Below are positions 4,414-8,877 of a stretch of DNA of 64,000 bases, one piece after another (the stretch's first letter is position 1; each line of letters opens with the position of its first letter). Below the pieces are notes generated by a model. The model ran no database searches. It saw only the letters and a list, made by a program, of their open reading frames with translations, and was not told the origin of the DNA. A program made the position numbers and the translations under genes. The stretch is from an uncultured Chloroflexia bacterium. GTDB lineage: Bacteria; Chloroflexota; Dehalococcoidia; DSTF01; JALHUB01. The stretch is taken from NCBI GenBank assembly GCA_963703345.1, contig OY969814.1, forward strand, positions 800,001 to 864,000, given 5' to 3'.

Positions 4414-5262
4414 ATGCCTGACTCGTGGTGGCTCAAGGTCAAACGTGCACAGAAGCACATGGTAGACATCGAGCGTGAGGCCCAGAGATACGCCGGCCTC
4501 CGGCCGTATCGGTTTGAACCGTTCCCCCAACCTAAGGGTCATCGTGATCTGAGGTGGACCTTGCGGATCACGAGTCAGCCCGATCCAATGCTCGCCCTGA
4601 TGGTTGGCGATTTTGTACACAACCTCAGAAGTGCGCTCGATCACGTTGTGGTCGCCTCCATCCCCAAGAAGGCGCGTAGTAGTTTCACTGCCTTTCCATG
4701 GACGTCTGTGGACATCTTCGCCAAGCGTGCCAAGGGTGAGTTCGTGATCAAGAGCGACGATGCCAGGCAAGACTTCGAACGGGCCATCCGTGGTATCCAT
4801 CCGGATGCGAGGACAACCATCATAGGGCTGCAACCCTACCACGCTGGATCCGAGGCTCACCGTATGGTGCTCGGACTCATCAGCCGCCTCGACAATGCGG
4901 ATAAGCATCGCGAACTTACGACGTTCGGTGCGGGTCTCCTCAACCCGTGGGTAGAAGCAACGTATAGAGGGACTACTAGGAAGATTAGGCCAGCCAACGT
5001 CGCGGATCGGCAGTTTGTGAATGATGGCGCAGTAGTCCGATGGTACGATCCGGCTGACCCTGCGGTGCGACCTGAAGATGTTATCAAGCCCGAAGTGCAC
5101 ATGGAGTTCGGCGGAACCGCAAGCATATTCATCCGCGTGACCCGAATGGACGGGAAGAAGGCCCCGATGTCCAACCTCCACCTCTCGCTTACTATGATGC
5201 AGGCGATCCGCACGGTTCGGTGGGTGTTGCGGATGTTGGAACCCTTCGCTCTCTACAGGTAG
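4414..5262 (+). CDS. Hypothetical protein, possible HEPN-like RNase, apparently foreign
   Basis: 282-aa ORF with visibly more A/T-ending codons than its neighbours. Motifs KxxRAxxH, GDFVHNLRSALDH, LxxLDNADKHR. Confidence 0.6.
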   Translation: MPDSWWLKVKRAQKHMVDIEREAQRYAGLRPYRFEPFPQPKGHRDLRWTLRITSQPDPMLALMVGDFVHNLRSALDHVVVASIPKKARSSFTAFPWTSVDIFAKRAKGEFVIKSDDARQDFERAIRGIHPDARTTIIGLQPYHAGSEAHRMVLGLISRLDNADKHRELTTFGAGLLNPWVEATYRGTTRKIRPANVADRQFVNDGAVVRWYDPADPAVRPEDVIKPEVHMEFGGTASIFIRVTRMDGKKAPMSNLHLSLTMMQAIRTVRWVLRMLEPFALYR

Positions 5263-5426: not shown

Positions 5427-6707
5427 ATGACAGACTGGCAAGAGATCGCTGACAAGTACATGATGACGACCTACAAGCGGCTGCCCGTCACGCTGGTCCG
5501 CGGCGAGGGGAGTCGCCTCTGGGATGACCGCGGCAAGGAGTACCTCGACTTCTTCGGCGGGCACGTCGTCGTCAGCCTCGGCCACTGCCACCCGGTCGTC
5601 GTTCAGGCCGTGCGGGAGCAGGCGGCGACGCTGATGCATTACTCCAACATCGTCTACACGACGCCGCAGCTCGAGCTGGCCCGCCTGCTGATCGACAACT
5701 CCTGCTTCGACCGCGCCTTCTTCTGCAACAGCGGCGCGGAGGCGGTCGAGGCCGCGCTCAAGCTGGCGCGGAAGTGGGGGAAGGAGCGTCGCGGCCCAGA
5801 CGGGCGCCCGTCGGGGCGCGCCTTCGAGGTGATCTGCGCCGAGAACGCCTTCCACGGTCGCACGCTGGCCACCGTCACGGCCGGCGGCACGGAGCGCTAC
5901 AAGGCGCCCTTCACGCCGCTGCCGGAGGGCTTCCGCCACGTCCCCTTCAACGACGCGAAAGCCATCGAGGACGCGACGTCGGAGAAGACGTGCGCGGTGC
6001 TGCTGGAGCCAATCCAGGGCGAGGGCGGGATCATCGTGCCCGACGAGGGCTACTTGCGCCGCGTCCGCGATTGGTGCAACCGGCAGAACCTGCTGCTCAT
6101 CCTCGACGAAGTGCAGACGGGAATGGGACGCACCGGCGCGCTCTTTGCCTACCAGCACTTCGGCGTCGAGCCCGACGTGATCACGCTGGCGAAGGGCCTC
6201 GGCGGCGGCTTCCCGATAGGAGCGGTGCTCGCCAAGGAGCATTGCGCCGTCTTCGTCCCCGGCGACCACGGCACGACTTTCGGCGGCAACCCCCTGGCGA
6301 CGAGCGTCGGCCACGCCGTCCTCGAGTACATGTTGGAGCACGACGTTCCGGCGCAGGCGGCGCGCAAGGGCGAGATCCTGGGCCGCAAGCTGTTCGAGCT
6401 GGAAGACCGCCTGGACCTTATCGCGGCGGTGCGCGGCATGGGCATGCTCTGGGGCGTCGAGTTCAAGCAGGAGATCGCGGAAGAGGTCGTGCTGGCCTGC
6501 CTGGAAGGCGGACTAATCGTCAACAACGTGCGCCCTAACGTGCTGCGCCTGTCGCCGCCGCTGACCATCAGCGACGAGGAGCTGGAGCAGGGACTGGCGA
6601 TACTCGAGCGCGTGCTGACGGCGGGAAACGAGCTTGAAAAGGCGTCGGAGCCGGCCTTCGAGCGCGATTGGGTGAGCAAAGAAGACGGCGCCTCCGAGGA
6701 CATGTAA
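5427..6707 (+). CDS. argD: Acetylornithine aminotransferase with an extra acidic C-terminal tail
   Basis: FCNSGAEAVE, FHGRT, EPIQGEGG, DEVQTGMGRTG, TLAKGLGGG, HGTTFGGNP; lies in the arg cluster. Confidence 0.93.
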   Translation: MTDWQEIADKYMMTTYKRLPVTLVRGEGSRLWDDRGKEYLDFFGGHVVVSLGHCHPVVVQAVREQAATLMHYSNIVYTTPQLELARLLIDNSCFDRAFFCNSGAEAVEAALKLARKWGKERRGPDGRPSGRAFEVICAENAFHGRTLATVTAGGTERYKAPFTPLPEGFRHVPFNDAKAIEDATSEKTCAVLLEPIQGEGGIIVPDEGYLRRVRDWCNRQNLLLILDEVQTGMGRTGALFAYQHFGVEPDVITLAKGLGGGFPIGAVLAKEHCAVFVPGDHGTTFGGNPLATSVGHAVLEYMLEHDVPAQAARKGEILGRKLFELEDRLDLIAAVRGMGMLWGVEFKQEIAEEVVLACLEGGLIVNNVRPNVLRLSPPLTISDEELEQGLAILERVLTAGNELEKASEPAFERDWVSKEDGASEDM

Positions 6708-6715
6708 TCATCCGC

Positions 6716-6737
6716 GTAGGCCGGCGTCTCGCCCGAC
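6716..6737 (+). repeat. Degenerate GTAG-type REP-like palindrome
   Basis: GTAGGCCGGCGTCTCGCCCGAC, similar to the copy at 45972-45994 on the minus strand. Confidence 0.4.
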
Positions 6738-6763
6738 GGTTCCTGCGTCAGCCGGTCCTTGAT

Positions 6764-6803
6764 TTGACAACCAATCGGTGAGCTGGTATCCTATAGGATA
6801 CCA
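6764..6803 (+). promoter_or_regulatory. Toxin-antitoxin promoter with overlapping palindromic operator
   Basis: TTGACA(6764)-17 bp-TATCCT(6787). A perfect 20-bp palindrome TGGTATCCTATAGGATACCA (6784-6803) covers the -10 box. Confidence 0.8.
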
Positions 6804-6824
6804 ATACCACCGAGGAGAGAAGCC

Positions 6825-7271
6825 ATGGCGAAAAACGCTTCCGAAGAGATCGACCGAAGGGCCCTACTGAAGGACCTGAAAACCATGAGGCAGATCGTCG
6901 ACAGACTGGAAGGCGCGGTTCTGGCATCCGAGGATCGAGGGATTGATCCTTACCGCCGAAGACGTCGACTCTTGAGAGACATATATCTCTCCGGCAACAG
7001 CACGAGTCGAGACGAGTTGGAGCCGGTCCTTCGCTCTCAGCTCACTGACTATCACTGGATCGCGCAGCAGGTTAAGAGAGGGTACCTTGCTGTTCATGCG
7101 CTTCCCGGCGGACATAAACGATTCGCGGTAACTCCCAAAGCCGTCCGCGAGCTTCGTTTGGGAGAGGAAGATGAGGAGGAGCAGGGAATCGACGCGATGA
7201 TGAAGCTGTCTGAAGAAGCCTTCGCAGAGGACTGGGATAGCGACGAAGACGGGATTTATGACAACCTATAG
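6825..7271 (+). CDS. Putative antitoxin (possible winged-helix N-terminus, acidic C-terminal tail)
   Basis: Overlaps the toxin start. Ends in SEEAFAEDWDSDEDGIYDNL, a motif type seen in antitoxins upstream of PemK/MazF genes. Confidence 0.75.
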   Translation: MAKNASEEIDRRALLKDLKTMRQIVDRLEGAVLASEDRGIDPYRRRRRLLRDIYLSGNSTSRDELEPVLRSQLTDYHWIAQQVKRGYLAVHALPGGHKRFAVTPKAVRELRLGEEDEEEQGIDAMMKLSEEAFAEDWDSDEDGIYDNL

Positions 7272-7617
7272 TCGCGGCGACGTTGTGCTGGTGCCTTTCC
7301 CTTTTGCGGAGCTCACTGGCACCAAGCGGCGCCCGGCACTTGTAGTCAGCAGCGACGAGCACAACCGCCAAAACCGCGCGGTCGTGATTGCCCAGATAAC
7401 GAGCAAAACGGAAGGACGGCCGCGCGTAGGAGACCAGCGGATCGACGAGTGGGAGAACGCTGGGCTGCTGGCGCCCTCGCTTCTGCGTTGCCATCTTGCG
7501 ACCATCAGAGATACGCTCATCTTTCGCAAGCTGGGGAAGCTTCCGGCGGCGGACATGGCGGCCGTCGAGACGAAACTCGCCGCTGTCTTTGGTCTACCCG
7601 TGGTCTCGCGAGATTGA
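7258..7617 (+). CDS. PemK/MazF-family type II toxin (endoribonuclease)
   Basis: RGDVVLVPFPF....KRRPALVVS...ITS; 119 aa. Confidence 0.92.
   Translation: MTTYSRGDVVLVPFPFAELTGTKRRPALVVSSDEHNRQNRAVVIAQITSKTEGRPRVGDQRIDEWENAGLLAPSLLRCHLATIRDTLIFRKLGKLPAADMAAVETKLAAVFGLPVVSRD

Positions 7618-7638: not shown

Positions 7639-8877
<1,239 letters not shown>

Follow-up and report, generated by a model that had tools for sequence, protein, structure and literature searches.

A conserved tail related to those of putative PemK antitoxins on ArgD in a genus of Dehalococcoidia

The C-terminal peptides of MazE/PemI antitoxins have been described as a module that shuffles with MazF toxins (PMC3879964, citing Smith and Magnuson 2004). 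In MazE-mt9 and MazE-mt1 of M. tuberculosis this peptide is an acidic, Trp-containing short helix lying in the groove of the MazF dimer (PMC8145246; PDB 7DU4 and 7DU5), and two or three substitutions in such peptides generally abolish binding (PMC8145246). Two further phenomena are already described: orphan antitoxins and anti-addiction modules, such as the chromosomal CcdA of Erwinia and the phage protein Dmd (PMC7354431), and exaptation of antitoxin DNA-binding domains, in which Xre and RHH domains became host transcription factors (PMC8987985).

In the window, the whole stretch of 64,000 nucleotides analysed here, the aminotransferase ArgD ends in a 22-residue peptide that resembles the tail of a putative antitoxin encoded next to it. 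Like the MazE/PemI module, the tail family is found behind different domains (HTH_17, Arc/RHH, ParD, ParB-HTH and winged helix) upstream of PemK genes; unlike that module, the carrier here is a full-length biosynthetic enzyme, the Tyr-Asp pair has been lost and the tail persists without a toxin. Retention of an antitoxin part in genomes without the toxin recalls CcdA of Erwinia and Dmd, although these are free-standing proteins, whereas the ArgD tail is fused, altered in its motif and only putatively neutralising. Host purifying selection on a TA part is shared with the Xre/RHH cases, which keep the DNA-binding half, whereas ArgD keeps the putative toxin-binding half, fused to an enzyme. The toxin of the window is distantly related to those of PDB 7DU4 and 7DU5; the MazE-mt9 and MazE-mt1 peptides gave no detectable sequence match to the tail family, the analogy being one of composition and position only. 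Searches of the open-access literature brought up no description of an antitoxin tail carried by ArgD or by another metabolic enzyme.

The argD-argG region and its PemK cassette

The arg operon of the window comprises, in order, argC, argJ, argB, a 282-aa insert, argD, a two-gene cassette and argG, with argH further on; argB, argD and argG were named by Pfam/NCBIfam profiles and the other arg genes from reading their translations. The argD open reading frame, tail included, spans 5427-6707, and its product, encoded between argB and argG, scored 475 bits against TIGR00707 (cut-off 410). Pfam and NCBIfam both place the end of the enzyme at residue 397. The tail, earlier said to follow the aminotransferase fold directly, is indeed present, but a seven-residue linker that the preliminary description skipped intervenes (Table 1). 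In cassette-free relatives argG comes after argD without an intervening cassette.

Table 1. Features of the argD-argG region (window coordinates)
Feature	Position	Strand	Basis
ArgD core, residues 1-397, class III aminotransferase	5427..6617	+	PF00202, residues 14-397; TIGR00707
ArgD helix patch, residues 320-328, in the C-terminal small domain; candidate docking surface	6384..6410	+	model helix 307-328
ArgD linker, 7 residues, predicted to extend the last helix	6618..6638	+	model helix 383-406; dN/dS 0.14-0.28
Antitoxin-family tail on ArgD, 22 aa and stop	6639..6707	+	alignment, profile, selection
Sigma70-like promoter match for the cassette, 10/12, extended -10	6764..6792	+	1 found vs 0.2 expected
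Perfect 20-bp palindrome across the -10 box; probable antitoxin operator	6784..6803	.	sequence
Putative antitoxin, 148 aa, predicted winged-helix (MarR/PadR-like) domain and canonical acidic tail (7203-7271)	6825..7271	+	model, fold search, homologs
PemK/MazF-family toxin	7258..7617	+	PF02452
argG	7639..8877	+	profile match

Several other elements were observed around argD. The 282-aa gene (4414-5262) was unmatched in the relatives' loci compared for ArgD and in Pfam and NCBIfam searches, and is similar to unnamed clusters, mostly from Actinomycetota. A 7-residue insertion in ArgD (5790-5815; 426 vs 419 aa) is lacking in close relatives. A short element 3′ of the argD stop (6714-6737), presumably REP-like, is shared with intergenic DNA of the cassette-free locus L054. 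An antisense ORF (6149-6703) was dismissed because its start codon sits on the variable last codons of the ArgD tail.

The cassette (6825-7617) has the layout of a type II TA module, with the antitoxin gene upstream of a toxin gene that overlaps its end by 14 bases, and with a promoter match and a palindrome of its own. The toxin, the only PF02452 match in the genome, scored 65.5 bits (gathering threshold 23.1), and its Arg25 and Thr48, which we take to be catalytic, are invariant in 14 homologs. For its partner no significant Pfam or NCBIfam match was obtained, MazE/AbrB models included, and the top matches in a fold search with the antitoxin model were all winged-helix regulators (probability up to 1.0; E 0.006 or weaker), so that a winged-helix protein is predicted. 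Judging by the gene pairing, this protein may bind the toxin directly and neutralise it. The stretch from argD to the toxin gene showed no terminator-like site.

In G003 and G008 the argD-argG junction holds the same cassette, as it does in two other genera (G010 and contig 31 of G016), whose ArgD proteins are tail-less. Synonymous divergence was 0.73 for the antitoxin vs 0.26 for argD between G003 and G008, and 0.26 for both genes between G000 and G003, a comparison in which the high GC3 of argD lowers its saturation level. Since the divergence of the cassette is out of step with that of argD, these values suggest that the cassette has been replaced at this site through repeated arrival. A recombination breakpoint in argD/argG of G008 was considered as the cause of its divergent cassette, and none was clear. 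The argD-argG junction looks like an insertion hot spot. At L011 (G011) a different two-gene insert follows argD, its second gene being PIN-like by eye. The G003 genome has a second PemK, of another type. Cassettes of the window's PemK class lie repeatedly in or beside housekeeping genes, named from reading translations: before hisF at L115, L119 and L126, and after an ArgS-like gene at L044, L049, L102 and L114.

Relationship and distribution of the tail

The likeness between the two protein ends was confirmed. The tails of ArgD and of the neighbouring antitoxin align without gaps, with 11/22 residues and 41/69 bases identical and the stops in register; identities by codon position are 15, 15 and 9 of 22, third positions being the most diverged. 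The BLOSUM62 score of the pair was 57. The runner-up among the ends of 20,557 stop-to-stop ORFs of the genome (at least 60 aa) reached 22 when the antitoxin tail served as query (mean -14, sd 7.5) and 29 when the ArgD tail did. With a profile built from 28 non-ArgD tails, the ArgD end ranked second among 40,444 six-frame segments, at 16.7 bits and E 0.012. ArgD tails scored 12.8-24.6 bits against the non-ArgD tail profile, left-out true tails 26-61 bits. The profile match, the Trp and Asp anchors and the C-terminal position place the ArgD tail in the family, from which it retains Ser, Phe, Trp and Asp. Altogether, the data support descent of the ArgD tail from the antitoxin-tail family. To call it a copy of the neighbour, as was done previously, is too strong: other members score equal or higher (62 with the orphan tail gene L089 and with P0144, 52-60 with many), and Pro5 and Arg9, frequent in the family (73/147 and 55/147), are missing from the neighbouring antitoxin. 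The ArgD tail is equally close to the wider family and to the neighbour, which is therefore not singled out as donor.

The tail family extends well beyond ArgD. In 93 genomes of the order, searched with a mixed tail profile, 26 matches were obtained from 21 genomes, namely 8 ArgD ends and 18 other genes. Of the latter, 16 are followed by a PemK gene, intact in 14 cases and broken in 2, one is an orphan and one is unreadable. A DNA motif scan of a species collection yielded 15 matches at 14 loci (5 ArgD, 9 antitoxins before PemK and the orphan L089), L084 and the G004 locus yielding the same ArgD fragment. Among 1.84 billion representatives, 264 matches (clusters at 50% identity) were obtained at E <=0.001. 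The family tails counted here are 147, that is, the 150 listed of these 264 clusters minus three rows lacking the anchors, one of the 147 being an ArgD fragment; among the 150 listed, 126 carriers are under 100 aa and one has at least 200 aa. HTH_17, Arc, ParD and ParB-HTH domains were among those found in 40 members scanned with Pfam, most of which had no match. Searches for a Pfam model or a PDB match for the tail family gave none (0 PDB hits with the tail profile), and no canonical tail was present in 29 candidate long proteins (260-2000 aa), a search of weak power. Pairing with PemK and the MazE precedent (PMC8145246, PMC3879964) mark the tail as the putative toxin-binding part of these antitoxins.

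Some family members are unusual in other ways. L089 (227-802) is a PD-(D/E)XK-like gene, by a sub-threshold Pfam match, with a canonical tail that scores slightly above the window neighbour against the ArgD tail; it stands alone between a tail-less argD and argG, with no toxin at the locus. At L120 an orphan tail remnant lies before hisF, in the his operon, and P0025 and P0026 carry two tails in tandem per protein. P0094, found on a single contig, consists of a TrpE truncated near residue 351 that continues into a canonical tail. It was rejected as a second established enzyme-tail fusion, being identical to the full-length P0174 up to the junction on one contig, and may be a chimeric assembly.

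On ArgD, the tail is present in 8/9 genomes of this Dehalococcoidia genus, G005 being the tail-less one. Of 30 ArgD loci read, 7 had the tail, all within the genus, and G007 was found additionally as the eighth; none of 22 loci from other genera had it. In metagenomes 2/29 ArgD loci carried the tail, and an ArgD-tail profile matched 4/401 genomes of the class, all in the genus. An assembly error can be dismissed, the fusion having been seen repeatedly, in 8 genomes, at 2 metagenome loci and with 20 distinct tail sequences. In trees of 22 ArgD cores the genus forms one clade (support 99-100), and G005 nests inside it (support 98 in the DNA tree and 57 in the protein tree); because of this placement, one gain of the tail in the genus ancestor and one loss in G005 are likely.

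The preliminary description proposed to ask whether the tail co-occurs with the downstream PemK gene and is under purifying selection. Selection is borne out below, but the cassette was present at only 3/9 tail-bearing loci readable for it, L053 being unreadable (its sequence ends 71 bases past the argD stop). On contigs of runs X2 and X3 the tail is also joined to argG, with 170 other bases between. A profile search detected no toxin of the window's PemK class in any of the five tail-bearing, cassette-free genomes (G001, G002, G004, G006 and G007, with completeness of 92, 97, 82, 92 and 90%, respectively), although this profile did match in 18/93 genomes of the order; weak toxin or antitoxin matches in G006 and G001 (E 0.009-0.47) were taken as noise, the toxin-class search having found nothing. 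The ArgD tail and this toxin class thus do not co-occur as would be expected of a working antitoxin. Of the two observations named beforehand as refuting the proposal, presence of the tail in orthologs without a TA locus was made; lack of likeness to antitoxin profiles was not.

Selection on the tail and possible re-use on ArgD

Selection was assessed with our own script of the MG94 codon model on 10 tail-bearing sequences, with the topology of the ArgD-core trees. The dN/dS ratio was 0.116 for the tail (p 9e-10 vs 1) and 0.073 for the ArgD core, with a median of 0.057 over 16 core windows, and the synonymous rate of the tail relative to the core was 0.85 (p 0.46), or 1.05 in its most conserved 11 codons. 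For the 11 codons that begin at Trp, where the tail departs from the family, dN/dS was 0.022. On the clade where no cassette was seen (G001, G004, G006, L054 and the unreadable L053) the tail value was 0.098 vs 0.097 elsewhere. For the first seven residues, the part that matches the antitoxin family, dN/dS was 0 on the toxin-bearing clade vs 0.255 on the cassette-free clade (p 0.005), in a post hoc test on one of eight segments, chosen after looking. These data show that the ArgD tail is under purifying selection at the protein level.

The conserved residues are in part not those of the family. The terminal pair is Tyr (145/147) and Asp (141/147) in family tails and Ser-Glu in 20/20 distinct ArgD tails, contrary to what a working antitoxin would be expected to keep, and the residue after Trp, mostly Asp in the family, is Val. 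The Trp and Asp anchors, present in 147/147 family tails, are kept in the 20 ArgD tails, one with Asn for Asp. Substitution on the stem followed by stasis would be expected if the tail had taken on a new function.

Since the tail is conserved where no matching toxin was found, it was likely captured and likely re-used on ArgD. As a whole, the explanation that it was captured once from an argD-argG cassette and then given a new role on ArgD other than toxin blocking is the best of those considered, and we give it an even chance. Deletion or illegitimate recombination would have joined the end of argD in frame to an antitoxin tail in the genus ancestor, which would then have been retuned by three replacements along the stem of the genus (Tyr to Ser, Asp to Glu and Asp to Val). 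The tail would now be a short motif that folds on binding, which is the weakest step. Its likeliest site would be the C-terminal small domain of ArgD itself, at the basic/aromatic helix 320-328, or the partner subunit, and the docked tail would stabilise or regulate the enzyme. Self-docking on ArgD specifically is, taken alone, doubtful.

In the monomer model, which is mediocre (mean pLDDT 64, 18 rows), the linker extends the last helix and residues 408-426 are unstructured (pLDDT about 30). A hint of a docking surface comes from genus-fixed changes. At ten ArgD sites the genus has a fixed residue that is rare in other genera, and seven of these sites lie in residues 297-397; the enrichment in the small domain (7/71 variable sites vs 3/147 elsewhere, Fisher p 0.015) is post hoc, reflects a single origin and mostly persists in the tail-less G005. 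Phe323 in the basic helix is fixed in tail-bearing ArgD and mostly Arg in other genera, and G005 has Gly321 and Tyr323. None of seven genus-fixed changes in ArgG reverts in G005. The ArgD changes point weakly to helix 320-328 as a candidate docking surface.

Several points weigh against re-use on ArgD. G005 does without the tail, as do all other genera searched, and the nesting of G005 in the genus is well supported in the DNA tree only. The first seven residues are unchanged with the toxin and relaxed without the cassette, in the post hoc comparison. Lineages that are toxin-free today may have met the cassette in the past, since it appears to have been replaced at the site. Finally, the tail is unstructured in the monomer model, and its partner is hypothetical.

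Competing explanations and significance

The strongest competitor is that the ArgD tail has kept the capacity to bind PemK dimers of this class and serves as a permanent second antidote or an anti-addiction guard. Produced along with the other arg operon products, it would buffer toxin that arises from read-through, and the cassette could be lost without harm; ArgD would then be a moonlighting antitoxin whose retuned peptide disarms a PemK cassette that repeatedly invades its own operon. This role is possible, at well under even chances. It agrees with the retention of Trp, Asp, Phe and Ser-Glu of the family, with the sufficiency of a 15-residue MazE peptide to bind and inhibit its toxin (PMC8145246), with the lack of a terminator-like site between argD and the toxin gene, with the divergence mismatch that suggests repeated cassette arrival, with matches to the same toxin profile in 18/93 genomes of the order, and with the post hoc constancy of the first seven residues on the toxin-bearing clade. 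On the contrary, the Tyr-Asp pair is gone in all 20 distinct tails, selection on the whole tail is equal without the toxin and strongest on ArgD-specific residues, and the cognate antitoxin keeps its canonical tail in all three cassette-bearing tail loci. Furthermore, many tail-less relatives also lack the cassette, so its loss does not depend on the tail. A complex prediction of the toxin dimer with the ArgD tail (score 0.02, mark 0.32, controls not folded) carries no weight in either direction. The earlier suggestion of ArgD as a second antitoxin is thus weakened by a tail that is kept under unchanged selection where no toxin was found and that has lost Tyr-Asp, while its premise of an antitoxin-tail origin is supported.

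It is very unlikely that the constraint lies in the DNA or RNA, through an element that serves downstream genes (promoter, operator or mRNA structure or signal), with the protein conserved as a by-product. Few synonymous changes separate some pairs (1/18 codons between G006 and G000 and 2/17 between G006 and G004, compared with about a third in the core), but the tree-wide synonymous rate is no different from that of the core and no promoter-like site was found within the tail. The antitoxin-tail origin of the scar proposed previously is supported, but a neutral scar, a translated and functionless leftover of cassette deletion, is the least probable reading and can be rejected because the tail has a dN/dS of 0.12 at a normal synonymous rate, together with a constant length and frame and 11/22 columns invariant in 20 distinct tails, despite the existence of orphan tails (L089, L120 and possibly P0094) and the loss in G005.

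The tail family that emerges from this analysis is portable and has neither a Pfam model nor a solved structure. If the tail acts as a moonlighting antitoxin, toxin activity would be tied to expression of the arginine pathway. If instead it was captured and re-used on ArgD, this genus would offer a small, phylogenetically bracketed case of a peptide from a selfish element joining a host enzyme, with the natural loss in G005 as a control.
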